Assembly: GCA_964600435.1 (NCBI GenBank)
Contig: CAZRJB010000002.1
Span: forward strand, 36,150 to 100,149
Length of the DNA stretch: 64,000 nt
Origin: an uncultured Lachnospiraceae bacterium
Lineage (GTDB): Bacteria; Bacillota; Clostridia; Christensenellales; UBA1242
Direction of reading: 5' to 3'
Shown piece by piece: positions 20,611-56,817 of this stretch; position 1 is the stretch's first letter; each line of letters begins with the position of its first letter. Made by a program: the position numbers and the translations under genes. A model generated the notes under the pieces. It was not told the origin of the DNA. It made no database searches and saw nothing but the letters and a program-made list of their open reading frames with translations.

Positions 20611-20616
20611 TTATTA

Positions 20617-22628: not shown

Positions 22629-22689
22629 TTTCGTTCACCCTTTTTATTTTTATTTAACGAATAGAGTTTAACACATACAATTTAGGTTG

Positions 22690-24075: not shown

Positions 24076-24184
24076 AACAATATATATGAAAAAATATATT
24101 AAATTGTTTTGAAATTTTAAAAGTATATGCTAAAATATGTATGCTAAAGTAAATTAGTAATTAAAAAAAGGAAGGTACAAAAAC

Positions 24185-24448
24185 TTGAAAATTTCAGACA
24201 TTAGAATCAGACTTGTTGACAAAGAAGACAGCAAACTTAAAGCAGTTGCTTCCATAACAATTGATGATTGCTTTGTTGTGCACGACATTAAAGTGATTGA
24301 AGGAAAAGACGGTTTCTTTATTTCTATGCCATCTAAAAAAACTCCAGATGGAGAATATAAAGACATTGTTCATCCAATCAACACAGAAACTCGTGAATCA
24401 ATTTCTGCACAAATTATTGAAGCTTTTAAATCTGCACCAAGAGAATAG
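24185..24448 (+). CDS. spoVG: septation/sporulation regulator SpoVG
   Basis: [67 protein letters not shown] start with an AAGGAAGG SD. Confidence 0.93.
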
Positions 24449-24516
24449 TTTTTTAAAATGTTACAAATGCTTTGTTGGCAAAAAAGTTCATTTTAAACAA
24501 TTTTAGGTTTGCAGTT

Positions 24517-24556
24517 AAAAAAAACCAACACCAAAAATTTTGGTGTTGGTTTTTTT
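24517..24556. terminator. bidirectional intrinsic terminator shared by spoVG and the giant-gene pair
   Basis: Palindrome CCAACACCAAAA-A-TTTTGGTGTTGG (24525-24549), flanked by A8 and T7. Confidence 0.85.
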
Positions 24557-24605
24557 GATTAAGAGATTTGATTAAACAACATTATGAACCAGCTGAAGTT
24601 GATGA

Positions 24606-27600
24606 TTATTGTGTAATTGTTATTGGTGTAATTTGCTCAGGTATAACTGTGTCACTGTTTGTTACAACTTTTTTTGTTAGTAAAATCTTTAAGTCGCTCT
24701 CAGTCATACAGATTTTATCCTGCCAGAGCACAATTTCTCTGTTTATCCCGCTTTCATTTGTGTTAACTCCTTTATATGTTTCAAAAAACACTTCAAGGTC
24801 AGAAAGCAATGTTAATTCTATTTTTACATCTGTTTCTAAGGTAAAACCAACCACATTGTTTTTGAATGTTTTTTCATTCCCTGCAACCAAACCGATTTGT
24901 TGAATGTTTTCAAAAGAATAGGTTGGAATGTTTTCGCCAACAGATTCACTTACATAAGAGAAGTACAATTTGTTTGTTTCTGAAACCTCTTCTGCATTGA
25001 TGTAAGTTTTTTCACCAACAAAATTAATTTTTGTTGTTTCTGTGATAGTATTAGTTTCTTTTGTACAACCGAAAATTCCGCCAACATAGTAAGACCCCAT
25101 AAGTGCCAAACCTGTTGATTTGTTGTAATCTATTTTTCCTTGTTCTTTGTAAACTGTGTTTCCTATGCTAACATTTCCAACTTTTACACCTTCAGCATAG
25201 CCAACAATTCCGCCAACATAACGAGCAATGTATGGGTTGTGAACTTTTAGATGCTGGTCTTCTTGCACGCCTAAAATGTGAGCGCCAACAACCGAATAGC
25301 CGTCTAATGAATTTAGTCCGTCAATTTTTGCACCTTTTGCATAGCCAGCAACACCACCAATTGAAACTGGGGTTATTGGATAACAAGTAAATGCATTGTA
25401 GTTTATAATTTTTGAATTTATTGAGAAATTATTAACTTCTCCTTTAATTTCACCTGCAACATAACCTGCAAAGGCATATGCTTCAACCGAATTGTCAAAC
25501 GAGTTCAAATTAAGGTTAAAGTTTGAAACTTTAGCAATTCCACCAATTCCACCAAACATTAAACCTGAAATCATTGCAAATGTTTTTGCATTTTCGCCAA
25601 CACTTGCTTGAGTTATGTTTGCAACACCGCCAACATAGCCAACTAAAGAACCAGAATAAGAAACCTGACCTCCGTTGGAATTAATCTCAGAAAATTGAAT
25701 TAGCCTTAACAATCCTTCCACATTGGTTTTGTTTGTTGTTAAAGCGGTTGAATTGTAATGAGATGCTTTAACCGAAATGTTTGAATAAATTAAACTTAAG
25801 AATGTTTCATCTGTTGTTCTTCCAAAAAGTCCGCCAACAATGTTTTTACCAATAACAACCACATCTTCACCTAAAACGCTTACATTGGCAACACTTGCAT
25901 TTATTGCTGTTCCAGCAATTGCTCCAACATATATGCTGTTTGGCAAATTGATGTAATATGGCTCAAAAATTGTGTTTTTTAAGCAACTTATTTGAGACTC
26001 TTGACTGCCAATTGACGCAAAAAGTCCGGCTGACAAATTTGAAGTTATGGTGTTAACTGAATAACCAGAAATGCTAAAACCATTACCTTCATAATATCCA
26101 ATTAAAGATTTATTGTATAAATTGCTTGAATATTTTTGTTCTTCTATGTAATTTATGCTACAAATTTGCCTATAATATGAATATTCGCCGTTTAACTGAT
26201 TGCAGTATGTTTCAAACTCGTTAACAGAAGAAATTAAATATGGATTGGTTTCGCTTCCTGGAGTTTGTGAACTTGAAGATGTTGTGTAAATATATTTGTC
26301 TGGATTATTCTTGTCAAAGTTTATGTCTAGTTGAGAGAAAGCAATAATGTTTGGAGAAACCAAATGAAGTCTTCTAGCAATATATTCACCATTTAATGCA
26401 TTTTCGCCATCAACTTTTGTGCTGTATGTAAACATGTTAAACGATGTACTTGCTTCTTTTGTTGAATCAAACACATAAAACCAAACCCCTTGGGATTTTT
26501 TATTGTTTGTTACAAATGACTTTAATTTTGAATCTTGCTTGAATTGACCTGTTGAATCACAAACATTAAAGTCTGCAATGGAAAGTGGTTCAATTCCGTC
26601 AATCACTGAAACAATTTTGTTGTCGGTTTCGCTATAGGTGTAGTTTGTTTGCGATGTGTTGTAGTTTATTAAATTATCTTCAATCAAAAAGAAACAATCT
26701 TTAAAAATAACATTTTCTTCAGTTTGTTCATGAGATGCAACAAAACCATAGTTTAAGGTGTCTTGTTGTTTTAGTTTAGACAACGAGAACACTCTTGTTA
26801 TTGTTCCGGATGTTGCTTTTGCAACAAAACCACTGCTTTCGTTTGTTGACATAATTGGAATGTTTGAATAGCAATCCATAATGTCACCAGAATTTTCATA
26901 AACAAAACCTGCAACTTTTGTTGCTGTGTATATAATTTTTGATGCTTTTGAATCGCTAGCAGCATAATCCGCATAAATTCTTTTTGAAGCTGAATTCATT
27001 AAACCTTCCACATAACACATTGCAATTGAGCCTGTGTTTCTACAAACAAAACCTGCAGTTGTAATGTTTTCGTTTGTGGTTGAAGTTGTGTTGTGAATTC
27101 GTGAATTTTTAATATAAGAACTTGCAACATGCCCAACATTGTTTGCAACAACGCCCGCAAGAGAAGCACCACTTGCTGTTAAGTTGCACTCAACTTGACA
27201 ATTGGTTATGTCGCCATAGTTGTTTGCACAAAGCCCAGCAAAGAACGAATTTTCCATAACAACAATTGTGCTTAAAATGTCAACAGTTACAACGTTGGTT
27301 GATTTTATTGCGCAGTTGGTTATTATGCCGTTGTTTTCCGCAACCAAAAGTGCAATGTTTGCACCATTTGAACTTGTGTTGTTGTCCAAAACAATGTTCA
27401 AGTTGCCTAAAATTTCAATTGTAACATTTTTGATTATGTTTCCAGTTTTGTTTGTTTTAAACAAAGCAAAGTCCGAACTAGAATCCAAAGCAAAATTAAT
27501 TGTTCCTGAAGAAATTTTAATTTTGTAACCATTTCCGTCAAACATTTTTGGAGAAACGGTTAACATTTGCAATTGAGATGGTGATATTGTTATGTCTGCA

Positions 27601-30600
27601 ACTTGTCTATAGTATTCGTCGTCTTTCATTTCCAACATGTCGTTATAGTTATAAATTGGAGTTGCGTTGTCGCTTGTTGTTGACAAATATGAATTAACTT
27701 CAAATTGATAACTTGTTAAAATGTCTGTTTCGGCAGGCTCCGAAATTGTTGGCACGCCTTCAATTGCATCAAGTTTATATTTAATAACAAAAGAGAAATT
27801 GCATGGAGATTGAACAAGTTTTGTTGTTATTGTTTGCCTGTTTAAAATAAATTCGTCATATGATAAATTTGTTGTGTTTGTGATTTGAATTTCGTTTGTG
27901 TTTTTATCTATAAGGAATAATTGAGCATTTGTTTTAAAACTCTCTAAGAATTGATTTTGACTTGGAGTGTTTATGTTTGCACATTCAAACTGAATTTTAT
28001 CTGCAATAACGTTTAAAACATTTGTGCTTTCTAACAATCTTAAATTTATTGTGTTATTTTCACCAAACATATTGTCAGCAACCAAAAATTTATAAATGTG
28101 CAATTTGGTTGTTTTTTTAATGCTTTCTGAAGAATCTTTTTTGCCATAAGATGTTATGATCACTTCTTTATATGCATTGCTTTCATAATTAATATTGTTT
28201 GAAATTTTTAAATAATAACTTCCACCAGCATAAACAACATTTGCAATGCCTGGGTTGTCACTTTCAAAAACAGCTTCATCAGAAGTGTAACCAACAATTG
28301 TTGTGTCTAAAAGATAGGTCATTCCTTCGGCAACATTATATGTTTTGTAATCAGCAAGTTCTTCAACAACCTTTTTGTTGTAAATTTCAAAAGAAACTTG
28401 ATTTGTAAGTTTAGAAATTAAGTTTGTTGTTTCAACCCAAACTGGTTCTGATACATTTTTGTTGTAAAAACTAAAAGTTATTGGAATAATTGTTCCATCG
28501 GCAACAGTTTTTGGGATTTTATAAACCAAACCAATAAGCAAACTATCATCAATTTCTTTAATGGAATTTTTAAATATTCTAATTGTTGAACCGCCAGTGA
28601 TTGATGTGTAAACAGAATCACTAGACACTGTGCCTTTTTTGTTGGCTGAATCGTATTGAATATATCCCAAATAGCCACCTTCTGCTTGAAGTTGCATGGT
28701 GACATCAACGTAGTCAAATTGGCTATATTTTGTGTTTACATATGCATTTATAGTGTTCAATTCTGCTGTTGATGCTTGATTGCCTGAGTAAAGCATTTCT
28801 TTTAAGTCAAATGTGTTTACTCCGTTTGATGATGTTATCATTTCTGTATTGTTTGAAGAATCAAAGTTGTTTATCAAAACTGAAGAGATGGTTTCTGGGG
28901 TTATTGTTATGTAAACGGTTATGCTTTGATTTGTTTTGTGTGATGTTAAAACCAATTTAATGGTTTTTCCAACCAAATAATTATAGGTTTCTGTGTCAAA
29001 ACTGCCTTCGCCCAACATTCTTAAAGAAAAATCAATTCTTTTTGTTAAGTTTTGTAAATCAATGACATCACCCCATTTTAACGTGAACAATGTTTTTTCT
29101 TCTTCTGTTTCAAAAGTACCTGAACCTTTTATACCAATTTTTTGTGAATTATTTTTTAAATTGAAATATTGATAATCAATTATTGTGTTTCCGTTTGAAT
29201 CTTTTGTTTCTTCTCCAACACCCAGTTGTGCAGAAAAGAAATCAGAATCATCAAAAGTGTTGTAAGTTAAGAAAAATTCGATTGTGTCGGTTGGTTCTGC
29301 GGACAAATGAGATTTGTTTGTTTTTACATTTTCAATTCCCATTGTTGCTTCAACTGTATAACCATTTAATTCGTAAGTGTATGAAGAGTTAATTGTTTTT
29401 TGTTTTGCAAAAACTAAAAGTTTTTTGTTGTTGTCACCTACAACCATATCCTCAGAATTATCAGTTTTCTTTGTTTCACAATAATATGTATAACCATCGA
29501 GTTTAAAAATTGTGTAAAAACTTATTTCGTCAGTAGTTATTTCCGCTTTTCTTGTTACAAAAGCAGTTGTGCCTTGAACAGAAATTAATAAATCTGTTAT
29601 ATTTCCATTAACTTCAAAAGAAATTTCGTTGTTTTGTGCCAAGGTTATTGGTGTGTTTTTGTAGTTATAGAAACTTGAAGCTGCCTTGAAATATACAAAC
29701 GTTGTTTGATTGTTGACCAATGTGATTTTGCTCATTGATTCTGTTTTTTCTTTGTTTTTGTAAGCAGTGATTGTGTCGTAGTAATTTGTTATGTTTAACT
29801 CTGCTGTTGTTTGGTTTGTGTAGTTTAATGCGCTAGAAATTTTTATGTTTAAGGCACCAACACCCAAAATGCAAATGTTTTTGCCATAATATTCAAGCCT
29901 TGCAACCGAAGGATTTTTAATTTCCAAATCTATATCTCTGCAAGTTATGTTAAGATATTTTAAGAGAGAAATTGTGTCTGTTAGGTTGGAAATTTTTTGT
30001 TGGTCGACACTATTGCTTGCTTGCATATATGCGGCAATGACCATTTTTATGTTGTTTGGCAATGAGTCTTCTGAGCCTTCAGTGAATTTGCTATAATAAT
30101 ATATATTGGTTGAATCTGCAAAAACAACATCGCCATAATAGTAATCTTTGGAGTTGCCATCATCGCCGCTATAATCATATTCGATTGAAGTATTACTATT
30201 TGCAGCGCTTAAACCAGAATGAATATTTCTTTTAAAATATGTTTCAGCGGTGATGCCTGCAGCAATAGAACTTGGTGCAGTAACAAGAACCTTGTTTGAA
30301 TCATAGGCACCATAATAAACAATAAACGAAGCGTTTATGCCGGTTCTTTCACCGTTGTCAACTGCTTGAATTTTGTTGTTTGAATAAGTTGTACCACTTG
30401 AAGCTGCAACAAATCCACTTAAAATTGTGCCTGAGCCTCTAACAAAAATTCTTGAAGTGTTGTTTTTAATTTCTCCACCACTTGAAGTCGCAACAAAGCC
30501 GGCAACATTGGTTGCGGATAATGTTTTTTTGGTATTATCTGTGTTGGTTTTTATTATTCTTCCATCAATTTCGCCGGTCACTTTTAAGCCAGAAATTGTG

Positions 30601-34262: not shown

Positions 34263-34402
34263 AGTTCTCTCTCCGTTCTTTATTTTTTTTGTTTTGTTTT
34301 TCATTTTTCTTGTTTTTTTGTTATTTTAACATTTTTTCAACCAAAACCATAACTTTTTTAAACATATTTATTTTGTTTTTATAATTATGTGTTGCCATTA
34401 TG

Positions 34403-46400: not shown

Positions 46401-49400
46401 AGTTTTCCGCTATAAGCACCGCCAACCAATCCACCAATTGCAAATGGTTTATAGCCAACATTAGATTCAAAAATGTCTTCCAAGCCGCGGTCAATTGTTG
46501 AATCGCCACCAGCAACTTTATAATATTGTTGCATATTTTTTTCAATTAAGTCTTGCCATTCAGATTCGTGCTCTGCCTTGATTTGATACAAATAGCCACT
46601 GCTGAAACCAACAACACCGCCAGCATAGCAGTTGTAAGCATTTATTTTTGCAATTTTATCTTTTTTGATTGTTAAAGCCAAATCACGAGCAATAACTTGA
46701 GAGCCAACGTGACCAATAACACCACCGGCAGTCATTCCTTGAATAACCAATCCGCCAGAAACGTGAATGTTGATGATGTTTGCAGATTGTTGGTCTTTTG
46801 CAATTTCAGATTCTTTAACTTCTTCAAGATTTCTGTAGAAATCTACAACACCAAAAGCACCACCAGCAATTGACAACTCTGTGTATGAGGATTCTGGTTT
46901 TGTTTTGTCATATATGTTAACCTGTTCACTTTCACAAGAAATGCTTGTATGGTTGGTTGATGTAACAGAAATGTTGTCAACAATAATGTTTGAAACGTTG
47001 GATGTGCCAATAACTCTACCAAAAACACCGCCAGTAACGTTTGCACCAATAATTTTGGTTGTGTTTTTATCTGTGTCAGCCAAACTGTTAGCCTTGATGC
47101 TAATATTAAACGCGCTAGAATTTTTAAGAGTTCCTGCAATTGTTCCAACAAATGTTGTGTGGTCGGCACTAACACCACCCTCAGAAAGTTCAATGTTTAA
47201 ATTTGAAATGCTTGCACCACTTTCTAGAGCCCTAAACAAGCCAAACTCGTCACTTGTTGCGCTTGAGTTTGAAATTGCAAGGTTTTTAATTGTTAAGCCA
47301 TTGCCTTCAAGCGAACCACCCATTTTTGAAATTGATTTTTGTTCACCAGTTAAAACATAGCCAGTTGAAAGCAAATTAACTTTGTATTCTGTTTCTTGTT
47401 CAGATTTTGGAACGAGAGAAAGCATGTCTAAATTATTTACAATTCTATATGAACCGTAAATCTTTTTAAACTCTGTGCTATAGTTATTTTTTATGTCTGT
47501 AGATTTTGATGCACCAAACACTGAGTTAAATTCTTCTGCATCTCTTATGATGATTGGGTTGTTTATTGTGCCAAGTTCATAACCAACGCAATATGGGAAA
47601 AGATATTCAACATCTGTGTTTTGCCCAGTTGTGTTTGCTTTTTTATATCTAATTGATTGAGCAATGTTGTTTGTGTTTACAAGAACAGGTCCGTTTTTTG
47701 CAATTGCCCATGTTCCAGATGCATTTATGCTTGAATCTATAAAACTAAAGCCATAGAATGTTCTGCTTTTGTCAACTTCGGAAACGGCTGTTATTGAAGT
47801 GTTTATAACACTTTCTATTGAAATTTGGTCTGAATCATTTTTAACGTAGTAATAACAAGTGTCAATAACACCACTGTTGTTGTAACCACCAATGTCTTTT
47901 ATTCCTGCAAAATTCATTTGAGTTATATTGTTGTTTATTATTGTGGATGCTGAATATGCACGTTTGATTGTTGCATCTTCACCATTTTCATAAACAAAAC
48001 CTGCACCCAAACGCCCAACTTGCGAACGTGAATTTGTTAAACGCAAGTTGCTATAGCAGTCAGTTATTGTTCCTTGATTTGAGTAAACAAAGCCAGACAT
48101 TATTCCAAGTGCTTCAATTCCGCCAATGTCAGATTGAATGCTGTTTTCGTCTTTAAAGCCACCTTGAGCATAAGACATAACAATTGTTCCAGTGTTTTCT
48201 CCAACAAATCCGGTTGTGGTTTTTGTTTCTTGTTTGTTATATATGTTTTGAATGTTTATGTTTTTAACAAACGAACTTGAAATCACCCCTGAGTTGTTTT
48301 GAACAAAACCTGAAATTGTTCCACTTGCCTTAATTTCAAATTGTTCAGCAGTTATTATTTTTGTTTCTGCAATTCCAATATCAGAAACGCTTTCAACAAT
48401 TGTTTTGCTTGAATTGCCAACTCTTGAGTTTGTTATTGAACCATAATTGTTTAAAACTAAGCCTGCAACATTTGCTTCAACGTTGTCTTCAATTTTTAAG
48501 CCATGTGAGTTTGTTGTGCTAGCCAAATTTGGGTCAAGATACGACATAACATCACAGTTGTAAACCACACCATTGTTGTTGATTGCCAAGCCTGCAACGT
48601 TTATGGTTGTTGCGCCTTGAACAGAAAGTGTTGGCAAATAATATATGTTAACTGTTAAGTTTTTGATTGTTGTTTCTGATGAAATTTGCTTAAACAATGC
48701 ATAGTCAGTTAAAGTTGAATCTTGAGCAAATTCTATAATGTGAATTGCATGGTTGTTTCCATCTAACGACTTAATTTTGTTTGTGTTTTCAATTGTTTTA
48801 AAGTTATACAAGAACAAATCTGCATTTAAAATGTAGTCTTGAGATTGTTCTTCGTTTGAAATGTTTAAAAAGCCAGCAGGGTCAGCAATTTCTTTTGGCA
48901 AATCTTCTGTTGTGTATTGATTGTTTGTGATTGTAAAATCATAAACATATACACCAGTAGAACCATTTGGCATTGTGTAAGGAATTCTTAGGCGCATGTT
49001 AACTTTGCCAGTGTATGCCCCACCTTGAACATATAGTTTTTCGTTGTTAATAAAGAATTTAACATAGTTATCATAAAACTCGTGTTGGTTAATTGAGCCG
49101 TCATTTTCGTTTGTGAGTTTTATTTCTGAGTTTCCGTTAACAAAATACAAATATGATGCCAAATTGTGTGCTGATGTGAAATCGCTTTTTGTAGCACCAA
49201 ATATAAAGCCAGTTCTAACGTTTTCAAAGTAGTAAGTAGCGTTTTCGTTTGTAGCATTAAATTCTTTTTTGAAGTTGGCTGATGCTTTTACGTTTTCAGA
49301 CAAAGACAACATAAATTCTGACGCATTAAAGTTTGTAACATTAAAGTTTTTATCTAGCGCTCTATACACAACAATGTCGTCTTGTTCAATTTTTGCATCA

Positions 49401-52400
49401 ATCACATAAACAAACATTTCGGAATGCACTTTAATTTCGTTTCCTTGTGAAATTTTTGTGCTTTCTACAACAAGTTTTAATTGTGTGCTATCATTTAGGA
49501 ATGAATAACCATCTTTGAATCTAAGAGTTATGTTATATACCGAATAACCAGCAGCATTATTGTTTAAGCGTTCTATTATGCATTCTATATTACCTACAGG
49601 TTTTCCATCTAATTCAGATTTTTCATTTCCATCATCATCTATTGTTGCTATTTTTATTGATGTGTTAATTTGGTCGCCAGCAACAAGTGCGGTAATGTTA
49701 CTAATTTCAGTTTTTGCCTCTGCATAAACATATACATGAGTTTCTCCGTTTAAAGAGATTTCTGGAGCTTCTGGTGCTTTTACGTATAAAATGAACACTG
49801 ATTGAACATTTTCAATTTTTTTGCCGTTGTAATATGCATTAACAGTTAAAGTGAAAACAGTGTCTGCATCAAAGTTTATGCTTGCATAAATTTTAACAAA
49901 ATATGCGCCAGTTTGATTATTAAAAATTCTTATACCATTTTTGCCATTTATTGATTCAAATCCTTCTGTTGCATTTTTATATGAAGAATTATTATTTTCT
50001 TGAAGTCTGAAAGCAAGAGTTGTGAGTGTGCTAGATTCTGCAACAATTTCAATATAGTCATAAGTTGCATATGTTGGGAACATGTCAACAACAAAAATGC
50101 CTGATTGAGTTGGCAACAAAACAGATGCCGGTTCTTCGAATCTAGAAACACTTACGCCTTCTGTTGTTGCATTTGTTACTTTATATAATGTTGTGTTTAT
50201 GTTTGAAACTGCTTGTGGCAAAATTGTTAGGGTTAAAGTTGTTGAAACATCGTATTTTGAGTTTGAGTTTGATGCTCCTACAACAATTGTGTAGGTTTTG
50301 TCTACCATGTTCAATTTTGCTTTGTTGTCTTCTTTTAGTTCAACAAAAACTTCAAATTTATTTGTTTCAGTTTCACTTTGTTGTACTTTAATATTAAAGA
50401 ATTGAGTAACATCAAGGTTTTGAGCATTTAAAACTTTAATGTCTGCTTCAGTTACTTTGTCGCCTTCTGCATCTGTTGTTAAAGTTGCAACAAAAGAGAA
50501 TGTGTCTTTTGGTTCAATTTCTCCATGGCTAACGTTTGCTGAAATCTCGGTTGTTCCAGTTTTTCTGGTTATTGTGAAATTAGTATCTGTTGATGACAAG
50601 CATAAATAACCATTAATAAGAGTATTAAAATCAGCATGGTTGCTTGTTAATTCAACATAAACTCCAACATCGTCGCTTTTAACAAAGTTTGTGTCCATGT
50701 TTATTGTGTGAACACCTAGTTTTGTGTTTGTTATGTAATTTTTTATGTCTAAAGTTGTGCCATCTATGCCTGTTTGCTCAAAAACAAACCCAAACACAAC
50801 ATCAAATGTGTTTTCTACAAGTTCAATAGAAACACCAGAAACACTAATGCTGTGATTCAATTTTGTAATTATTTCTGCTGTTTGCCCAACAACAATTTGA
50901 ATGTTTGTTGAAGAAGAAATTGTATTGCCGTTGTGAGTGATTGTAAAATTTGAGAAATAGTGCATTGACACCAAGTCAATTTTGACACTTGTTGTGAAAT
51001 CATATTGGCTAGAAACTTCTAAAACAAATTCCCCAACACCATATAGAGTGATTGAGTTAGCACTAACACTAACAAAATTGCATGCAGAACCATCTTTGTT
51101 TAATGCACGAACTTTTAAATCATCGATTTTAATTGAGGTTGAAGTTGAAGAAAGCAAATCACTAAGTGCTATTGTGTTTTTACCATTTAACAATGATTGT
51201 TTTGAAGAGTCTTTTGCTTGATAATAGAAAACAATGCCTTTGGTTTCATGGCCATAAGATTTTTCTGTTGTTTCTTTAACGGAAATTGTGCCAAGAGCTT
51301 TGTCTTCGTAATTTTCTGTTGTGATGTCTGTGCTGTTTTTGTCAGAAAAATCTTTGGAGCCTCCGCCAATCACTCCGTTGATGTAAATTGTTTGATTTGT
51401 TGTTGTATCTGTTGTTTCAACAACTTTGTTTGAATCGTTTATATTAAATTTTGCAATTATTATTTTGCAATCTGAAATTGTGCCTGTGGTTGTTAAGTTT
51501 GTTCCCGCAATGGCATTTGCTGTTTTGTTGGTTAAGTCAGAAACATCAATTGAGCCGGCAAAACAACAGTTTGAAATTGTGCCTATGTTTGTTCCAACCA
51601 ACCCGCCTGGGTTTTCATTTTTTGCGATTAAAACACTTGGAACATATTGGTTATTATATATATAAGTTGTAACATTAACATTTTTAATTGTTCCATTGTT
51701 TGTTTCTGCAACAAAACCAATGTTGACAGTGTTATCTGTTTGTGTAACAGTTCCACATATGTTCAAATTTTCAATGTGTGCATCTGCACCTAATGTTTTA
51801 AACAAAGATGTTGATGTTAATTGAATTGTTGCACATGCTGATGATGTGTCGTCTGAATATCTTTTTCCGTATAATCCACCATAAAATGTGCTAAATAAGA
51901 AATTGGTTTCATTATGTATATATGTTGTTGGAATGGTTAAAACATAGTGCTTGCTTGAATCTTTTATTTCGCTCAAACTTGTTATTTCAAATGCGGTTGC
52001 ATAAGATTCTCCGTCTGCAACAACAATTGGAACTAGCACTTTTTTTGCTGTTGAATTGGTATCTTTTGGAGTTATTTCAATAATTCCTGTGCCACCAGTG
52101 TTGCCCAAAACTGTGATTGTTCCGTTAGGAGTTATTGACAAAATATCTTTAGATGTGTTGTTTGTTGGAGAAAACTCAATTTCTAATTCTTTTTCGAGAG
52201 CTTCTGCTGGAGTGATTTCAAAATTAAGTTTAAATTGTTTAGCATCATTTTTAGACAAATCTATATAAATTTGTTTATATGTTTTTGTCGATTCGGTTAT
52301 GCCTTGCAAATCCAAATTTGTTATAGAAACATCACCAACAATTTTTGTTTCAATTATATTGACAATTACAACATATTTTACAAACGATTTTAAATTTGTA

Positions 52401-54994
52401 TAATCTGCCGTTATGCCTGCTCCAAAGTCTATAAAATCTGCAGCAAACAATTCAATTGTTATTGTTGTTTCATTTTTATCATAATTGTTTGCTGTTATTT
52501 CCAATTTTCCAGTTGCAATTGTTAATGTGGCTGTTAAAATGTTCTTTGTATTGTCTGAGTTCTGTTTTGTAAACGTCATGGTTCCATCAGCGTTTTCATT
52601 AACATTTGCGCCTTGAATAAACACCTTGTTGTAGGTTGCAGCTCTGTTTGCGTTTGACATTGCAGATAAGTTTATTGTTGTTTTTGCCAAATCAGTTTTT
52701 GTGGACAATTGGTTTTTTGCTCTAAGTGTTATGTTTTTTGCAGTTGATTCTATTGATTTAACAGCATCATAAATTTCAACAAACAAATATTTTGTTATAG
52801 GGGCGTCGGCAGCACCAACAATTTTGCCGTTTTCAATTTTTTTGTCAAAGAAATCAATTTTTATTATTGTGATTCCAGCTTTTATTGAAGAAATTAATTT
52901 GTTGTTGTTTAAACCCTGAGTATTTACATATGAACTATATATTTTTGAAAAATCTGCTGGGGCTAAGTCGCTCCCGTCCTCTTTTTTTAATTGTTTTAAG
53001 TTTTTAATTTGGGCTGTGCTGTAAACTCCAACACCTGGTTCGTAAAAAGAATATTCTACTTTTTCGTATGTTGCATTGTTGTTTAACGTGTATTTTAATT
53101 CAACAGCATAGCCGTTTTTGATTGAAATGTTAACAAGGTTGCCGTTTTCTTCTTTATAATCTCCAACACCAGACAAAAACTCAATGTTATTTTTTAATGA
53201 AATGTTTGCACTTTGTAATTCTTCAAACAAAATAACTTCCGCTTGAATTGTGTGCCCATTTTTTGTTTTTATTGTGTATGTTCCGCTTTGTCCTGTAGGG
53301 AAATTTAGATTAAAATAATAATCTTTATCCTTTGTAACAGTTAATTCTTTTGTAGGGTCTGCATTATTATAAACAGAAATTTCGTTAGGGTCAACAGCGC
53401 CATATGCATAAATAATGCAACTTGGGTTTGTGCCTGATTTAAAACCATAAACTGTGCATTGGTTTTGTGTTGTTGTTGAATCAGTTGATTCAACAAAACC
53501 AAGGGTTGTGATTCCATTTTTTATTTCAAAATCAATTGTGCCTTTTATATTTGTGTTTGATTCGCAAGAATAAGTAAGTTGCTCCGAGTTGTTGCTTGCT
53601 GTGTTTCCTTTTACATAAACAACTTCGTCTGCATTAATTGTTGCTGATGTTGTTGTTTGGTCGTTGCCCTCTAATAATACTGTTCCGTCACTTTTTATAA
53701 CTTGAAGATTGCTGTTTTTTTTCAAAGTTAAGGTAATTTTTTTGCGAGAGAAAATAACTTCTTGTGGCAAAATGCCAAATTCCAACCTTTCACCCAAAGT
53801 GCCAACACCATGATTAACATAGGCTGTGTATGTGTTGTTAGCGTTAACATTTTCACCATTTATTTTGCATGATATGCTTGTTATTGGCAAAACAACGTCA
53901 ACATTAACACTTTCAACAATTTGATTATTTTGATAGCACAAAAAAGTTGCAAAAAGATTTTCATCGGTTTTTAATGCTGTTTTTTTATATGAATAGTTAA
54001 ATTTTAAAGAGCCTTTGCCCTGACTTGCTGCATTTACAGCTTTAAACACAAAAGTGTAAACATCATCACCGCCTTGTGTTGAAGATGTTTTTAAGCAAGA
54101 AAGAATGTCTGAAATGCTGCCAGATGCAGTGTTAAGGTCAACATCAATTCCATAAATGTTTGGAACTTTAACCGTTACCTTAAAGGTTTGAATTTCATAT
54201 GCATCATTGACTAAATTTGAAAGAGTTAATGAATAGCCATCTTTGTTAACAACATCTTCTTCGTTGTTATAGTCAACTGTTACTTGCATTTTATCTGCAA
54301 TAAGTTTTATGTTTGGAACAACTGCAATGTTTAAAGTTGTGGAAAGTTCAGGTTTGATTTTTGAAGTTGCAACAACAGTGATTTGTTGTGTTGAAGCTTC
54401 AAATTTTGTGTTGTCAATAACCAAGTTGTTGCCTTCAATTGAAGCGCCTTTTATTTCATCTTTAATTTCAAAACTAACATCCGTTTGTTTTGTGTCTGCG
54501 GGTTCAAAAGTTAAAAAGTTTTTGAGGTTGTGAGTTGTTTTGTCAGCCTCCCCTTCACCCAAGTTTGGAGTTGTGCCAAAAAATGGAATATATAAATCAG
54601 ATTTTGATGAAAGGTTTTCTATTGGCAAAACAAGTTCAAAATTGAAAGATGTTTTAACATTGCCGGATTTAACTTCAACCAATGTTGGTTCAAGTGCAAT
54701 GTTTGAATTTGCTTTGATTGTTATTAAAAAAGTGTTGTCAGAAGTTTTTGTTTGAGAAACCAAAAAGTAGTTTGAAGGTTCATAAATTAACTCTAGTGAA
54801 TTTGCACTAAAGTTTTCTAACGTTGCAACAACCGACACAGTGTTGTTTTCGGTTTGCCCTAAAACAATGGACACATTGGTTTTGTCCAGCAAGATTTTGC
54901 CGTTTTGCTCTTTATTGCATGCAGAAAGAAACATGCAAGACCCCAGCAAGAAAACAGAAACAACAAAAACTAAAAATTTATTTAACTTTTTCAT
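34403..54994 (-). CDS. giant surface lipoprotein (6863 aa) with Ig-like regions, seven GLUG-like repeat blocks, Thr-rich tandem repeats and a Cys cluster
   Basis: Uninterrupted 20.6-kb ORF with an AGGAG SD 5 nt upstream. MKKLNKFLVFVVSVFLLGSCMFLSAC is a lipoprotein-type signal. About 40 motifs by eye such as PGGLVGTNIGTISN, YAGGVVGFSNSGTIKN, YVGGVVGYNNGTVAVN. Confidence 0.85.
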   Translation of the reverse strand: MKKLNKFLVFVVSVFLLGSCMFLSACNKEQNGKILLDKTNVSIVLGQTENNTVSVVATLENFSANSLELIYEPSNYFLVSQTKTSDNTFLITIKANSNIALEPTLVEVKSGNVKTSFNFELVLPIENLSSKSDLYIPFFGTTPNLGEGEADKTTHNLKNFLTFEPADTKQTDVSFEIKDEIKGASIEGNNLVIDNTKFEASTQQITVVATSKIKPELSTTLNIAVVPNIKLIADKMQVTVDYNNEEDVVNKDGYSLTLSNLVNDAYEIQTFKVTVKVPNIYGIDVDLNTASGSISDILSCLKTSSTQGGDDVYTFVFKAVNAASQGKGSLKFNYSYKKTALKTDENLFATFLCYQNNQIVESVNVDVVLPITSISCKINGENVNANNTYTAYVNHGVGTLGERLEFGILPQEVIFSRKKITLTLKKNSNLQVIKSDGTVLLEGNDQTTTSATINADEVVYVKGNTASNNSEQLTYSCESNTNIKGTIDFEIKNGITTLGFVESTDSTTTQNQCTVYGFKSGTNPSCIIYAYGAVDPNEISVYNNADPTKELTVTKDKDYYFNLNFPTGQSGTYTIKTKNGHTIQAEVILFEELQSANISLKNNIEFLSGVGDYKEENGNLVNISIKNGYAVELKYTLNNNATYEKVEYSFYEPGVGVYSTAQIKNLKQLKKEDGSDLAPADFSKIYSSYVNTQGLNNNKLISSIKAGITIIKIDFFDKKIENGKIVGAADAPITKYLFVEIYDAVKSIESTAKNITLRAKNQLSTKTDLAKTTINLSAMSNANRAATYNKVFIQGANVNENADGTMTFTKQNSDNTKNILTATLTIATGKLEITANNYDKNETTITIELFAADFIDFGAGITADYTNLKSFVKYVVIVNIIETKIVGDVSITNLDLQGITESTKTYKQIYIDLSKNDAKQFKLNFEITPAEALEKELEIEFSPTNNTSKDILSITPNGTITVLGNTGGTGIIEITPKDTNSTAKKVLVPIVVADGESYATAFEITSLSEIKDSSKHYVLTIPTTYIHNETNFLFSTFYGGLYGKRYSDDTSSACATIQLTSTSLFKTLGADAHIENLNICGTVTQTDNTVNIGFVAETNNGTIKNVNVTTYIYNNQYVPSVLIAKNENPGGLVGTNIGTISNCCFAGSIDVSDLTNKTANAIAGTNLTTTGTISDCKIIIAKFNINDSNKVVETTDTTTNQTIYINGVIGGGSKDFSDKNSTDITTENYEDKALGTISVKETTEKSYGHETKGIVFYYQAKDSSKQSLLNGKNTIALSDLLSSTSTSIKIDDLKVRALNKDGSACNFVSVSANSITLYGVGEFVLEVSSQYDFTTSVKIDLVSMHYFSNFTITHNGNTISSSTNIQIVVGQTAEIITKLNHSISVSGVSIELVENTFDVVFGFVFEQTGIDGTTLDIKNYITNTKLGVHTINMDTNFVKSDDVGVYVELTSNHADFNTLINGYLCLSSTDTNFTITRKTGTTEISANVSHGEIEPKDTFSFVATLTTDAEGDKVTEADIKVLNAQNLDVTQFFNIKVQQSETETNKFEVFVELKEDNKAKLNMVDKTYTIVVGASNSNSKYDVSTTLTLTILPQAVSNINTTLYKVTNATTEGVSVSRFEEPASVLLPTQSGIFVVDMFPTYATYDYIEIVAESSTLTTLAFRLQENNNSSYKNATEGFESINGKNGIRIFNNQTGAYFVKIYASINFDADTVFTLTVNAYYNGKKIENVQSVFILYVKAPEAPEISLNGETHVYVYAEAKTEISNITALVAGDQINTSIKIATIDDDGNEKSELDGKPVGNIECIIERLNNNAAGYSVYNITLRFKDGYSFLNDSTQLKLVVESTKISQGNEIKVHSEMFVYVIDAKIEQDDIVVYRALDKNFNVTNFNASEFMLSLSENVKASANFKKEFNATNENATYYFENVRTGFIFGATKSDFTSAHNLASYLYFVNGNSEIKLTNENDGSINQHEFYDNYVKFFINNEKLYVQGGAYTGKVNMRLRIPYTMPNGSTGVYVYDFTITNNQYTTEDLPKEIADPAGFLNISNEEQSQDYILNADLFLYNFKTIENTNKIKSLDGNNHAIHIIEFAQDSTLTDYALFKQISSETTIKNLTVNIYYLPTLSVQGATTINVAGLAINNNGVVYNCDVMSYLDPNLASTTNSHGLKIEDNVEANVAGLVLNNYGSITNSRVGNSSKTIVESVSDIGIAETKIITAEQFEIKASGTISGFVQNNSGVISSSFVKNINIQNIYNKQETKTTTGFVGENTGTIVMSYAQGGFKDENSIQSDIGGIEALGIMSGFVYSNQGTITDCYSNLRLTNSRSQVGRLGAGFVYENGEDATIKRAYSASTIINNNITQMNFAGIKDIGGYNNSGVIDTCYYYVKNDSDQISIESVINTSITAVSEVDKSRTFYGFSFIDSSINASGTWAIAKNGPVLVNTNNIAQSIRYKKANTTGQNTDVEYLFPYCVGYELGTINNPIIIRDAEEFNSVFGASKSTDIKNNYSTEFKKIYGSYRIVNNLDMLSLVPKSEQETEYKVNLLSTGYVLTGEQKSISKMGGSLEGNGLTIKNLAISNSSATSDEFGLFRALESGASISNLNIELSEGGVSADHTTFVGTIAGTLKNSSAFNISIKANSLADTDKNTTKIIGANVTGGVFGRVIGTSNVSNIIVDNISVTSTNHTSISCESEQVNIYDKTKPESSYTELSIAGGAFGVVDFYRNLEEVKESEIAKDQQSANIINIHVSGGLVIQGMTAGGVIGHVGSQVIARDLALTIKKDKIAKINAYNCYAGGVVGFSSGYLYQIKAEHESEWQDLIEKNMQQYYKVAGGDSTIDRGLEDIFESNVGYKPFAIGGLVGGAYSGKLSIGYSKINVINQYAKNAGGIVGYSYKINQDSDELTDDWLILNEIYAIGDVYSNAANAKIGGIFGKCEINGDKVAVNKDNLLGHPQLIMVNALNYWGHNSYEKFKDPSYKNIGGILGDGAYFEESTGSNTTSSSIYTIKKVQFEGEGDVAVDKSTSSNSAAGITSYYSYPGIISDDGATIDLMFKENGWYKDKNWSRDFNETFPHINYIYPTSTYIIESVNDFYKFILHGNEDDAIFLVKGDTSKLNDDEILIDCSNWYTTLGVIRGDIYGATNKDGFKNLHSPLFTQAQNCTISDLILQGCASPLVISSNNVTYQKISLINCRTSYVYNGNSALLTATTQGGKFEGISFDSDCQLTPSQANNAGLLFGAHTGSEVTIQDILINSNVIVTVSTPNTSNSAVIYGLLFGSGASATISNVNINGGTLTVGPNSGIETSIGLVAGSVTGNITISSLNISNNVTLEVEGTSGDSADKTIYIGGLVGDVKGTFTLNGKDKENPVYYAFNISVSNLENYKTLYLGNACGHAKTLTINGLIVFGAYKDNNLNYVFKPLTIDTFASTNNYIGGVAGGVENVSTTDASNPGYVAYYGDLTIDVGGVEQGASNTPITVTYLNIGGAYGTAGTTGSGSICNTIYEGTIGFKVSETGKQNKYEFSNVNVGGIVGFVSSGNSLTISNCVASGELNLPAKNIGTQSVNQNFAGIVGFAAKEDNANTSITFEKSAGNTKVIALTTVFATTQSDSLDAVIKCATGVALTGNAQYCSAVTLSVSSQTSITTNCDFGTFTQDLTGGTDSRPEIIILLQDNAPQGSKLNAMELDDDSAYDQKPESGSTDEVFYKQESTDKHVVEYGSTKTRKLYINLGDAPATWGDISPLDYQISLNNAILFSAGAEIWSNHTPFNTISETSAVSGVVARVYIDESGSTPMPSNINLNNASSAFTNAAGFVNTNNGIVYVCSVQETLNVFNTGNTQFQAYLNNNVSHTSSSPLQIILPDQTKVEAVAGFVHKNTGYVFGSNTNIKIQTNKESVTCHGFVAENSGTIEFSYASGINNGYVSVGKVTQTDFNKKGELNKQHTLFAPVAYTVSNNKYIKSTDYSYNINNCYTIVMAKGVGIDANLPTGVVGESDACEITIKDSDQDKTIYETSSYVNGSKDYFACNSLYNHNYPTISGGPFAGITYSKRVTMLERQDDSSQNTPSGASGDGSDPASEPSTSTSTPSSNDSTIVFKGLYANDLYTTDLVSGQKTLKPEASSTYYFTIPNLTVLKKLSGLMTIHSKFVLINDINVCYTGDAYSDSIEITGNTSYDTIIEGMNNGLYNLNLTKNLFHSIGNTDSQNPQNTKIITIQNLKFGAIVLQGATGIIGTIGPNATLDNINLEDYTEPKEIKLSDNTLSAGDTVSVATITSTSAGGYYGVLASINNGTIKNSAFKIDISAKATHTSTGYTLGGFVGQNSGTVESSTFSGAVTVIEESLDESSIVVFGAFIGENLGTAERLSLKQPSQFQTLHVTESGDVLTECIEQTNDNKGPHLMETDTNSTTIQGSCIKEYTSQIFVKTSGYAYVGGIVGINGAFSTANVAATQVTKPTRPLIEQCYTAYSCGDNQYAVFVGDERYQMVAYAGGVVGFSNSGTIKNCANISNVAAMSVWQKTTPLKNTTKTTTTGSGDDVSTTTETISVYAYSLNSETGLVEKTQDGTSRVYYDDAVSIDNVIKSKGTSSDDLASIYNMFTGGTIIDLSRIPIYKAFFEKITTKSFKDDSGYFSLIIEDKTANSSNKIIIANKNVDLHSSDNPTGWDTEYIYDNAKRESGETPKQYNYYLEYPINSSSAVASGSTQGYKFTITKISASENGVDFTITMTQGSWDDSYNFEESQQKTNNSKFSMKFRDKTVCRIIENESNSIKNDWWDKAGLVYAFDFKDENNVQEYLARYFSDYNANLLNAQDYLQTNGTLANDFTFVLSGDGTLGYYFNGAINIYQERSALAYAGGIAGGMSSDTTYTQVAVYGNVNAGYRAIKPIENITAKNVGSSVKKSSIKLPWLFLASAYSGAIEKYFAVKAFREEVSKISTLLDTPTFYLTKYLGTSPRFMTKNKSIWEDGLFNRYAIFDNSNDLKFINVSLGSLVGYNSENCQERMEKFFVDVDNNIWGKTYYGEGIGWYKKNKWTFGKNYYHGFKKYNTKSTWKYEDADTSKILCFNYIFGNHSDSIVPVIGTGASATAVLQSSGSGSSTSSPDSSSAEIYVDSNITTYTQVTEIQVKNAFDSYSKSYNNLGLIKLTELSGSNVHHAYYYYTSVPIEVLGEIVETNSTSTPDKNIIVDVSRIINETETSKLTLKYNKDKSTTQNTVFKDWKNSNNNNCWTLINGHYIPETQADLFLSIVDSDGTFPDNTIGIVNEKSAVTITNEKSWNKLVNTLNDYNNNVKGDNNKIDFSSIYVTVNLNNNQTEINVGDNLINEFNGTIKVLNFYTIFKKVVLSTNNNDTALGFIKSTTGCTLENITISGVNINSVNGSSSVGLLIGSVVEKVSQSAVTIKNVKINSVNINFKDSTKTNISFGGLIGTVTSGSVTLANVELTGSVELVSGINYAGGFVGNNAGTLSIGETKQTTTLGAQHDLSLKVASSENVYVGGVVGYNNGTVAVNKTLNIGKTTPIIISADVTAPGLTASAGGFVGVNKKDKSINIIEGVTFGCTSKGFSNVGYVLAGFNVLNESGDEFVYPSSAFASKYIAATDDGTLTANDGVPQNITYNSIVSRWICKTTLGADGNKIDNSSSVNITSNNVSGNFTINGITYTISGNNLITNLNSLSFNNLAVNKTETTEETKTNSDGEEETTESTSGPEQKTISLSISYNTTGNTISITETTLAEINGKISYGSGNSTNINAGDKIYDKTTTLTYYLYKTTTSSTTNASSSVVNGTQAYYLAVDKKIEYFKPNQTEAIVSTSKTLEYAIVLNDVNYKVNEDDRYNLEIYQLSEYQQNGEESCDVTITANREKFDYGISEPKYKKNAAFTPNRVYGGLVSDLNDTKILNKLFEDELESSAASDSASSLFNTSGELVLKILNTTIYKNGSNGDVFVNTLDGKIYLSNSIKFNIESTDEDEHFYIANNVLLTATTNGTTTTLTDSDNKTVVTIVTENGTTTYYSGSSTSGKVLTATTNGTTTTLTDSDNKTVVTILSNSTIYYDDYNNILTYKQDSTDKTKAYIKDNTNNAVATITTKQYVSASGEELTAETSDNKITLKKTETGANGETTTTTVATIVTDSNGTTTYYEGSSTSGDGNKLTEQANQDGSISYLNSDGVVFKQDVTFYYDNTSTPLVGIIKGDKTTVYDIVACIDNSGKTPIYTDAKGNKFTSNGETYKLGTNGDTTTLTKDGTAVATITQKTTYLSASGEVLTATPSDNTTTLTDSDNTTVATIVTANGTTTYYNGSNTSGDNNKLSSASKTVSLSCGGLYASFAENSNTLSLSQKFIVSKTETVSDDTTPTTTTEYSNAEYVNGATTLPDEGTIPTLSLCTITLPTMIEALVGGSANLNANNYEINIKHNYYQVKNSNGNVVARFAHKNGVIYSAYNNSNNPLTIETKYIDGSGEKITDSSQYNNAAKIKTTLTSVSTTVAEITYIVNGEPTFTATDGNQTPTTYTVEPKTDNKKITGTYTSSLTIGGEIKIDYNSSFSFGGKNYNYLSVQSYTFNNKTYLVVACIDSNYNVTDYVYLVNNDKFQSCGNITYTLGDNGSDKTAISLITKWQNNAPDRYPSFVPKDADDNIYNIQDNLVQPAESEISTLSITRNWKDVQVDIEANLGDLFYSYTTTYTEKETKIEISYSNNQVTLSQTCTCTTCTCSEFGCKSGSTCTCTSCSSTTSPTIDTDKTTYTVNSSGTISIGYKDSDGKVVKTTTYVFVGENNLTTEQNGNIITGTSIETADTDNPYKGFTTVADKSVIENPTLISNDKLYSKTIKLDDKEFTLYIAIIAGQGAGSTVYYVYNEELSAKYTQLANFGGFYEISKVDTNKTISGLPTSN
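36180..37130 (-). repeat. in-frame tandem array of about 42-aa Thr-rich repeats, including two identical 69-nt copies
   Basis: 69-nt perfect duplicate at 36926-36994 and 37052-37120 (period 126 nt, LTATTNGTTTTLTDSDNKTVVTI...). Diverged copies near 36205-36275, 36310-36360 and 36670-36770. Confidence 0.85.
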
Positions 54995-55071
54995 AACAAC
55001 TCCTAAACTATTTTTAGCAAATAATGACTAAATATTTGTTTTTTTTGACTTTTGTTTGTTTTAATATATTA

Positions 55072-55111
55072 ATAATATATTATTTAATCGAATATTGTCA
55101 ATTGATTGACA
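55072..55111 (-). promoter_or_regulatory. candidate promoter and operator for the giant-gene pair
   Basis: Minus strand TTGACA (55096-55101), followed after 16-18 nt by TATATT/TATTAT. The -35 box is one arm of the inverted repeat TGTCAAT-TG-ATTGACA (55096-55111). Confidence 0.4.
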
Positions 55112-55379
55112 TCACTTTTTAAAAAAAATTATTGTGTTAAAAATCATTTTTTTAACAATGTAAAAAATTTAAAAAAAATAATTTTTGCAAATTTTTAATA
55201 TTTTATATATAAAATATTAATAAATAATTATTTTTTTAATAAAAAAATGGGATAATTTTAAATTTAAACTTTTTAAATTGTTCATCTTTTTAAAATTCAC
55301 CCATTATTTTTATAATGTTCACCATTGTTTTTTTGCACAAAAAAACACGTGCTTTTACGTGCTTTTTTTGTTTTACTTT

Positions 55380-55610
55380 TTATAAATTTTTTGAATCTAT
55401 TAAATCAACAATGTCTTTGATTGTTTTCATGTTCATTGCTTCTTCGTCCGGAATGCTAATTCCAAATTCTTCTTCAAAAGCCATTAGCAATTCTACTGTG
55501 TCTAAAGAATCGGCACCAAGATCTTCTATAAGTCTTGAACTTTCTGTTATTTTTGATTCTGCAACATTGAGTTGATTTGAGATTAATTTTTTTACTTTAT
55601 CAATAGTCAT
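55380..55610 (-). CDS. acpP: acyl carrier protein
   Basis: 76 aa. LGADSLDTVELLMAFEEEFG contains the phosphopantetheine-attachment DSL motif. GGAGG SD. Confidence 0.93.
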   Translation of the reverse strand: MTIDKVKKLISNQLNVAESKITESSRLIEDLGADSLDTVELLMAFEEEFGISIPDEEAMNMKTIKDIVDLIDSKNL

Positions 55611-55638
55611 TTACATTTCCTCCATTGGTACTGAGCTA

Positions 55639-55667
55639 TATTTTAGCACCTTTAGAAAATATTGTAA
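55639..55667 (-). promoter_or_regulatory. sigma-A type promoter for acpP
   Basis: Minus strand TTTACA (55662-55667), 17-nt spacer, TAAAAT (55639-55644), preceded by TGC (extended -10). Confidence 0.5.
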
Positions 55668-55690
55668 AGCAATTTTATCAACTAATTTTT

Positions 55691-56248: not shown

Positions 56249-56314
56249 CTTTTTTACCTCCGTCAAAAATTATTGACAGGTTTTGATTGTTTAAACATAT
56301 ATTTTAAAACTTTT

Positions 56315-56779: not shown

Positions 56780-56817
56780 AAAAATAATTATTGACTAATT
56801 GTTGTTTTTTAAACATT

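Follow-up and report, generated by a model that had tools for sequence, protein, structure and literature searches.

Among giant bacterial adhesins, the RTX adhesins LapA, SiiE and MpIBP and the staphylococcal Ebh consist of tens of near-identical tandem immunoglobulin (Ig)-like repeats and either rely on type 1 secretion or are anchored to the wall, while the beta-helix adhesins Fap2, Ag43 and filamentous hemagglutinin (FHA) belong to diderm bacteria and are exported by type V secretion. Giant proteins also occur in ultra-small partner-dependent microbes, as the SPEARE proteins of nanohaloarchaea, and the variable surface lipoproteins of the Mollicutes (Vlp, Vsa) are small and vary by repeat number and phase switching. 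Here, we analyze a tandem pair of genes for giant lipoproteins in a 64,000-nucleotide (nt) stretch of bacterial DNA, the window, whose numbering is used throughout unless residues or locus identifiers (L001 etc.) are named. Gene A (34403..54994, minus strand) encodes 6863 amino acids (aa) and gene B (24606..34262, minus strand) 3218 aa, and B is a collinear paralog of A residues 1-3030. In the best reading of the two products, which we hold with moderate confidence, a lipid-anchored stalk bears a distal binding end that evolves fast, the adhesion itself being what we infer.

In their size of thousands of aa, their beta-richness, their anchoring at one end and a presumed distal binding region, A and B resemble the RTX adhesins and Ebh, but they are almost free of repeats, carry an N-terminal lipobox and show no recognized ligand-binding domain; of the two marks of a fibrillar adhesin, tandem recognizable repeats and an adhesive domain, we found neither in A or B. 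A long right-handed beta-helix as a rigid surface rod is common to A, B, Fap2, Ag43, FHA and PfbA, and Ag43 and PfbA were among our Foldseek matches while the core profile reached some TPS-domain proteins. Unlike Fap2, Ag43 and FHA, A and B have no translocator or TPS domain and contain several separate helices alternating with other modules. With the GLUG and Peptidase_M26_N domains (PF07581, PF05342; PDB 6xja, 3n6z), they share the coil motif xGGxVGxNxGxIxNxY and the right-handed beta-helix, but their modules have diverged so far that Pfam does not detect the conserved core, and they are embedded in lipoproteins of 3-7 thousand aa of mostly unrecognizable sequence. We know of no role established for the GLUG domains themselves. 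Neither A nor B has the M26 catalytic domain, the zinc-binding HExxH or the LPxTG of IgA1 protease and its relatives among the M26 IgA1-specific metalloproteases (ZmpA/B/C).

The comparison with lineages of reduced genomes is similarly mixed. Vlp and Vsa share with A and B the N-terminal lipid anchor, here predicted, and an exposed, fast-varying C-terminal part, but A and B are 10-50 times larger, occupy a single locus and have no switching elements. The giants of Omnitrophota contain many transmembrane regions and SecA-like (divergent SecA DEAD) helicase domains (bioRxiv 10.1101/2023.11.21.568195). A and B are like them in being very large, fast-evolving and mostly unannotatable, in making up a notable share of a reduced genome and in coming from a lineage predicted to be partner-dependent; in contrast, they have one signal peptide each, no other transmembrane region and no SecA DEAD helicase, and we found no sequence relationship. 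A survey of giant genes found other giants of Clostridia to be built of RCC1, Listeria-Bacteroides or dockerin repeats, and these are different proteins. The short variable C-terminal toxin and small immunity gene of polymorphic toxin systems were not found at the locus, nor did Pfam detect in A or B the SLH, CWB2 or choline-binding modules of S-layer and wall-bound Firmicutes proteins. Judged by their sequences, A and B would be giant beta-helix-containing surface proteins outside the M26, fibrillar-adhesin, toxin, S-layer and Omnitrophota classes and, as a pair, previously undescribed; our literature search returned no description of a giant lipoprotein pair. What distinguishes them is the combination of a lipobox anchor, near-absent internal repeats, a long-plus-short paralog pair and conservation across the lineage, very small genomes included.

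Architecture of the Two Proteins

Both proteins start with a signal peptide that supplies their only hydrophobic segment. The signal of A (54917..54994, minus strand) ends in the lipobox LSAC with Cys26 and that of B (34194..34262, minus strand) in LSGC, and each shows a basic N-terminal region, a hydrophobic core and the pattern [LVI][ASTVI][GAS]C that we used as the lipobox criterion. The strict test was passed by 66 of the 72 5'-complete orthologs, and most of the remaining six show variants; orthologous frames open with signals of the type MKKF...LLSAC|G. The sequence-only reading of the window that preceded this work had assigned each product its own lipoprotein signal, in agreement with these counts, and had left the choice between LLGSC and FLSAC for A, which we settled as FLSAC since the orthologs use LLSAC|G. 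A and B are accordingly listed here as predicted substrates of signal peptidase II, that is, as putative bacterial lipoproteins; neither Lgt nor LspA was identified among the annotated open reading frames (ORFs) of the window.

Homology between A and B spans all of B, with the core at E 7e-31 (BLAST), and the collinear segment scores 5-30 SD above composition-preserving shuffles. The first 3,000 aa common to the two proteins consist of beta-rich unrecognized regions and three GLUG-type right-handed beta-helix modules, and A runs ~3,800 aa further with additional beta-helix modules and with orphan modules joined by Ser/Thr-rich linkers. Using local hidden Markov models (HMMs) of the two core modules, we mapped six beta-helix modules in A and three in B.

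All features of A and B given here lie on the minus strand. In A, a beta-rich N-terminal region of unrecognized fold (residues 27-1050; 51845..54916), collinear in ~16 orthologs and in B, is followed by beta-helix module 1 (residues 1058-1256; 51227..51823), which was mapped with the core-module HMMs and recurs at the corresponding position in ~36 orthologs. Within the most conserved stretch of the family lies the core beta-helix module (residues 2042-2385; 47840..48871), supported by AlphaFold2, Foldseek and HMM; next come a conserved linker domain with an invariant Trp and the motif NPIIIxSAEEFN (residues 2386-2559; 47318..47839), for which the model has low confidence, and a second core beta-helix module (residues 2560-2932; 46199..47317) with a weak profile match to PDB 3n6z (E 0.03). 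Further beta-helix modules follow at residues 3784-3938 (43181..43645; E 4e-12 to the HMM of core module 1) and 4198-4506 (41477..42403; HMM), the latter with the Pfam GLUG motif PF07581, and the last, at residues 5349-5527 (38414..38950; HMM and ortholog alignment), forms a conserved island within the variable tail. An orphan aromatic-rich module (residues 4535-5070; 39785..41392) sits between Ser/Thr-rich linkers and shows 18-27% identity to the closest ortholog. In B, beta-helix module 1 occupies residues 1066-1313 (30366..31109; HMM) and the core, two beta-helix modules plus linker domain, residues 2221-3084 counted from the first ATG (25053..27644), with E 1e-32, 7e-47, 1e-19 and 1e-43 to A-type core HMMs.

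Self-comparison of A and B gave almost no internal repeats. The sole DNA-level repeats of the locus encode Thr-rich repeats of ~42 aa (residues ~5950-6300 of A; 36095..37147); they are spaced by 126 nt, confined to 36126-37140 and largely missing from the closest ortholog (57-63% gaps). Ser/Thr-rich linkers occur in A only from residue 3643 onward, and from this starting point we draw the picture of a proximal 3,600 aa that looks compact and a distal part that looks like beads on a string. Near the C-terminus, 8 of the 66 cysteines of A fall within 24 residues (CTCTTCTCSEFGCKSGSTCTCTSC, residues 6678-6701; 34892-34963), a cluster that might form a metal or disulfide knot.

Fold of the Conserved Core

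AlphaFold2 modeled residues 2041-2960 of A as all-beta with a predicted local distance difference test (pLDDT) value of 69 and a predicted template modeling (pTM) score of 0.63. When this model was searched against the PDB with Foldseek, all 50 matches listed were right-handed parallel beta-helices. A Foldseek probability of 1.00 was obtained for the IgA1 protease of S. pneumoniae (6xja, 6xjb) and for BACOVA_03286 (3n6z), with E 7e-3 to 4e-2 and template modeling (TM) scores of at most 0.47, whereas the best matches by E-value were PL6 alginate lyases, a fucoidan lyase and GH55 glucanases. A core profile of 41 orthologs reached proteins with PF07581 GLUG and PF05342 Peptidase_M26_N at E 1e-42 to 1e-7 and, weakly, BACOVA_03286 by sequence (E 0.03). 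The model and the profile together argue for a core that is a right-handed beta-helix of the GLUG/IgA1-protease-N-terminal type. Its invariant residues, at Asn, Gly and aromatic positions, may be read as structural positions of the beta-helix coils and not as a catalytic set.

Outside the core, searches returned little. Pfam scans of long pieces of A and B gave no match at E<=0.01, including SLH, CWB2 and choline-binding domains and the GLUG motif in the core and in B; GLUG surfaced only when A was scanned in 1000-aa pieces, where residues 4001-5000 scored 23.4 bits against a cut-off of 20.5 (E 7e-5; three stretches, the best at 4301-4325). No peptidase, carbohydrate-active enzyme (CAZyme), toxin, helicase, adhesive, lectin or ligand-binding Pfam domain was found in A or B, nor any CAZyme, peptidase, toxin or adhesive family in the 14 orthologous tails scanned with Pfam. 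HExxH and LPxTG are absent from A and B, and the sequence-only reading, which had seen no HExxH, sortase signal, SLH or choline-binding repeats, is thereby upheld; it had also named a domain search placing the proteins in an already characterized adhesin family as grounds for abandoning its proposal, and our searches turned up no domain known from adhesins, proteases or wall-binding proteins.

PDB sequence searches with A and B yielded nothing meaningful, and an N-terminal profile of 15 orthologs nothing at all; the only hints of Ig-like folds were single marginal matches to nucleoporin Ig-like domains when the 15 N-termini were scanned with Pfam. Residues 4500-5700 of A had no homolog among 5.8 billion proteins, and its C-terminal 1200 aa no match in metagenome contigs. 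Residues 27-1050, 1257-2041, 4535-5070 and 5530-6863 of A matched nothing in Pfam or PDB, nor in the 5.8 billion proteins where tested, and residues 2933-3783 likewise received no family assignment. One database protein, P0011, joins a fragment of the beta-helix core to an amidase and the C-terminal domains of a D-Ala-D-Ala ligase; it is probably a chimeric contig or gene call and not a real fusion.

Divergence along A

Conservation of A peaks in the core (residues ~2000-2900) and falls off toward the C-terminal 2,300 aa, which are almost unrecognizable. Of the 80 related loci that we read, 76 have a detectable core. The first 2,000 aa could be detected in 15-49 loci and residues 3000-4500 in 4-20, whereas almost no locus had a detectable counterpart of the last 2,300 aa. 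The closest complete ortholog, L081 (6293 aa), shows the same gradient: Identity is highest in the core (56-64%), lower in the N-terminal part (36-54%) and only 14-28%, with 30-63% gaps, over most of the tail, which is interrupted by conserved islands at residues 5202-5606 and 6500-6648. Over its whole length, A is 45% identical to this ortholog, as compared with 97% for AcpP, 79% for the GldA-like protein and 78% for the M23 peptidase of the same locus.

The similarity of the tail declines smoothly with the identity of the core. We therefore rejected the idea that tail modules are exchanged horizontally: The tail has changed in place and not by cassette swapping. Differences between strains, compared for 24606-34262 and 45380-54994 of the window and L082-L087, were mostly nonsynonymous. 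The single-nucleotide polymorphisms (SNPs) in B comprise K to N, P to Q and S to Y plus two silent changes, and those in A are R403M, F3063V and S3168A with no silent change. The resulting 6 nonsynonymous and 2 synonymous SNPs in the compared parts of A and B are too few to gauge selection.

Distribution of the Family

To define the family, we scanned one genome per species with patterns from the most conserved stretch and obtained 98 confirmed matches, from which the 80 loci were read. At least 98 species genomes thus encode a relative, all of them metagenome-assembled genomes (MAGs), nearly all labeled as uncultured Clostridia, Clostridiales, Christensenellales or Firmicutes, and they were recovered from gut material of chicken, yak, deer, sheep, rabbit, mouse and human. 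For nearly all loci, a single open frame of 4,400 to >6,900 aa contains the match (4,400-7,000 aa for the orthologs in ~80 loci). Complete mature proteins have a median length of 6340 aa, with A, at 6837 aa mature, near the top of the range, and the distance from the lipobox Cys to the core has a median of 2277 aa and an interquartile range of 2203-2345. In 13 of the 16 loci with enough downstream sequence, the giant gene is followed, after 7-290 nt, by another large lipoprotein ORF, and some of these following ORFs match the N-terminus of B. The pair is a conserved trait of the lineage and not a one-off. A scan of viral contigs found no relative.

Two members of the family have been placed taxonomically. 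L006, a genome of 1.0 Mb, is that of Candidatus Caccopulliclostridium gallistercoris, which its authors placed in family UBA1242 (PMC8035907), and L074 is MAG KY236-132, of 791,354 bp, in genus Onthoplasma, family UBA1242, order Christensenellales (PMC12306168). The L074 ortholog, at 6809 aa, takes up 2.6% of its genome. Genomes of UBA1242 measure 0.67-1.6 Mb and lack most biosynthetic pathways and standard transporters, and the family has been proposed to be an obligate symbiont or parasite in an account that does not mention the giant genes and names no contact molecule (PMC12306168). In a neighbor-joining tree of the core, A grouped with L081, L002, L003 and L005, with the Caccopulliclostridium clade adjacent and Onthoplasma more basal, which suggests that the window comes from UBA1242 or a close relative.

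Two peculiarities of single loci may be noted. In L052 (16278-22244), L048 (10726/10727) and L044 (5475-5586), two frames, adjacent or overlapping, replace the single giant frame; these splits could be assembly-error frameshifts or genuine disruptions. In L081, three direct repeats of ~43 nt (AAAGAATTGCTC..AAAAGATTA.TTAA..) stand right after the stop of the giant gene (22742-22880); the window has no counterpart of them, and gene B takes that place.

Integrity of the Locus

A and B are confirmed as real, intact genes and not chimeras. Together, they fill 30,389 nt or 47.5% of the window, close to the 47% first estimated, and every other ORF of the window is at most 846 aa long. At the window's G+C of ~32%, a random frame on this strand meets a stop every ~12 codons, and the chance of such stop-free frames is ~1e-252 for A and ~1e-119 for B, which gives numbers to the earlier statement that they are too long for chance. 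The two co-oriented ORFs are separated, as the sequence-only reading described, by 140 nt without a hairpin (34263..34402, minus strand), a spacer that on folding is unstructured (-9.1 kcal/mol, z -1.5) and carries the GGAGAG ribosome-binding site of B. The ORF list starts B at its first ATG (24606..34304, minus strand; 3232 aa). Because GGAGAG lies only 5 nt upstream of it, Met15 at 34262 is the likely start, and the resulting length of 3218 aa, the approximate size suggested before, recurs in gene calls on independent contigs.

Contiguity was checked with the Logan assemblies of runs SRR14160761, SRR22923249, SRR14160767, SRR14160765 and SRR14160763. The five were 99.94-100% identical to the window and gap-free over 18951-34448, which takes in B at full length with its junction to A and flanks, and also over 45380-64000, which covers the first 3205 codons of A and flanks. 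Between 34449 and 45379, A was judged in the Logan contigs from gene-call lengths and not from sequence reading, and by these calls A is unbroken for 5968 codons from its start, with the last 850 codons on another contig. The sole uncorroborated stretch, ~36956-37090 (~135 nt), is where the short-read contigs break, inside the 126-nt repeats. The locus has no other DNA repeats, and how many copies of the 42-aa unit A contains is uncertain, the count being taken from a single assembly. The concern about chimeras and frameshifts is in this way settled for contiguity and the intactness of the frames and persists for these ~135 nt. A public collection contains several of the window's proteins. Exact look-ups succeeded for spoVG and acpP and gave no match for B from its first ATG, hisS or uvrB.

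Within the giant genes (26000-38000, plus strand), the GC skew becomes positive and the AT skew strongly negative, although the genes on either side have the same orientation. The shift is likely due to the Thr/Asn/Ser-rich composition of the proteins (~30% of residues) and not to a foreign origin.

Proposed Role and Alternatives

In the model that we favor, A and B would be exported by Sec, lipidated and cleaved at the lipobox cysteine. Because of this proposed lipidation, the N-terminus would stay in the cytoplasmic membrane, and the conserved proximal part would form a rigid stalk through and past the cell wall. The fast-evolving distal end of A would then be an exposed interaction surface whose ligands, glycans or proteins, would be carried by a partner microbe, by host mucus or by food particles, whereas B, a shorter form without the distal end, may pair with A or fill a layer nearer the cell; the two genes would be transcribed together. 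From the standard geometry of beta-helix coils and beta-sandwich-sized modules, we estimate that the chain spans roughly 100-250 nm, well past a Gram-positive wall. The most economical function would be attachment to a partner cell, to host mucus or to particles, and it would fit a lineage thought to need other cells. The sequence-only reading had left the function unassigned and offered an adhesin or sheath only as an inference, a status that our analysis leaves as it was.

Several observations weigh against a lipid-anchored binding stalk. The Foldseek support is weak among the matches listed (best E 2.5e-3, none <=1e-3) and the TM-scores are low, the latter because the query holds two domains. 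An adhesive, lectin or enzymatic domain was recognized nowhere in 10,000 aa. The model of usable confidence covers ~13% of A, and that of the N-terminus (residues 27-700, aligned with B only) failed, with an unusable pLDDT of 33.6. The fast divergence of the tail could reflect relaxed constraint instead of diversifying selection, the placement in UBA1242 is taken from the gene tree of the giant protein itself, and the joint transcription of A and B is deduced from the arrangement of the locus.

We tentatively, and with considerable doubt, extend the model to a partner-attachment organ of a family of gut Clostridia with genomes below ~1.5 Mb (UBA1242 and relatives), in which the conserved proximal 3,000 aa would form a stalk of constant length and the hypervariable distal 2,000-4,000 aa of the long paralog would set the partner or host surface for each species, and which would be an independently evolved Gram-positive counterpart of the giants of the episymbionts among Omnitrophota, Patescibacteria and DPANN, lacking any binding domain that can be recognized. 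Clostridia of the UBA1242 type, with genomes of roughly 0.7-1.6 Mb, are gut inhabitants of chickens, ruminants, rabbits, mice and humans, and the pair, kept in nearly every locus that can be judged, evolving faster than its neighbors and almost unannotated, is an obvious candidate for their contact apparatus. As an antigen or probe, the conserved core could make the cells and their contacts visible, the variable end could mark partner or host specificity, and the >10,000 aa per genome that have no family assignment are a target for structure determination.

The main rival to the binding stalk is a protective or structural coat, in which packed stalks would be the main outer layer in place of an S-layer and the end would bind nothing and vary solely to escape phages and host antibodies. 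The pair occurs in essentially all genomes of the lineage and occupies a fixed place on the chromosome beside core genes, which would suit a coat, as would the conserved architecture and cysteine-to-core distance, the lack of any SLH or CWB2 layer domain recognizable by Pfam in A or B, and the long-plus-short pair, which could build a two-tier layer. Known S-layer proteins are, however, much smaller and self-assemble into lattices, of which A and B show no sign, and flexible Ser/Thr-rich linkers with distal orphan modules suit a tethered reach better than a lattice. We consider a coat rather unlikely.

Less probable still is a giant surface enzyme in which at least one beta-helix or orphan module would cut polysaccharides (as in PL6, GH55 or tailspike folds) or proteins (as in IgA1 protease) and so feed a bacterium poor in biosynthetic pathways. 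The top Foldseek E-values indeed belong to polysaccharide-degrading enzymes, distant sequence relatives carry Peptidase_M26_N, and UBA1242 has been described as lacking many pathways (PMC12306168). Against this, the high-probability matches are the noncatalytic N-terminal beta-helix of IgA1 protease and 3n6z, HExxH is absent from both proteins, no CAZyme or peptidase family of Pfam appears in A, B or the 14 orthologous tails, and the invariant Asn, Gly and aromatic residues of the core read as structural.

A contact-dependent weapon, its variable C-terminus a polymorphic toxin for neighboring cells, is effectively excluded: The hypervariable C-terminus of A upon its conserved N-terminal scaffold speaks for it, but the variable part measures 2,300-3,800 aa as opposed to 100-300 aa for a toxin tip, the next gene is paralog B, followed by a terminator, and not a small immunity gene, the N-terminal lipid anchor argues against release, the tail decays smoothly with core identity with no sign of cassette exchange, and no toxin family was matched. 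An assembly artifact or a decaying pseudogene is essentially refuted, since frames this long cannot arise by chance, the same architecture recurs in ~80 independent genomes and five other runs gave near-identical contigs in which the frames are intact, the ends of short-read contigs within the 126-nt repeats at ~36956-37090 leaving only the repeat copy number in question.

Transcription Signals and Neighboring Genes

The signals that bracket the pair suggest that A and B are cotranscribed as a unit of ~30.5 kb. A promoter-like site, TTGACA-16/18 nt-TATATT/TATTAT, with 11/12 consensus matches lies upstream of A (55072..55101, minus strand), where the sequence-only reading had placed a candidate promoter at ~55100, and the arrangement recurs in orthologous loci: TTGACA or TTGACT as -35 element and an A/T-rich TATAAT-like -10 element ~17 nt on, at equal upstream distance, in L001, L002, L003, L004, L005 and L047. 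The -35 hexamer is overlapped by a perfect 16-nt palindrome (TGTCAATCAATTGACA, 55096-55111), which yields TTGACA on both strands. We rejected the palindrome as a regulator, as it is absent upstream of the six closest orthologs.

Upstream of the promoter-like site, a hairpin with a U-run after acpP (55340..55372, minus strand; AAAAAGCACGTAAAAGCACGTGTTTTTTT), detected in the scan as a palindromic hairpin at 55346-55361, parts acpP from the giant-gene unit, and comparable hairpins were read by eye 3' of acpP in the orthologous loci L001, L002, L003, L005 and L047. At the other end of the unit, folding identified a bidirectional intrinsic terminator (24517..24556, no strand assigned), which agrees with the strong terminator proposed there earlier; its 18-bp stem has -21.8 kcal/mol and z -6.5 and is flanked by an A-run and a U-run. 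It is common to the giant-gene unit and spoVG (24185-24448, plus strand), which is convergent with gene B and ends at the same terminator. Rfam and tRNA scans of the window returned no matches.

The locus had been described as lying among core genes and not in an island, and this holds beyond the window: In 21 related loci, synteny upstream is kept in the order M23 peptidase - acpP - giant gene, and the viral contigs contained no relative. The M23 (SpoIIQ-like) peptidase itself is encoded upstream of acpP at 55691-56266 and is syntenic with the giant gene in those 21 loci. Also upstream of acpP, a small ORF for a secreted protein of 154 aa (56315-56779) is syntenic with the giant gene in 9 related loci.

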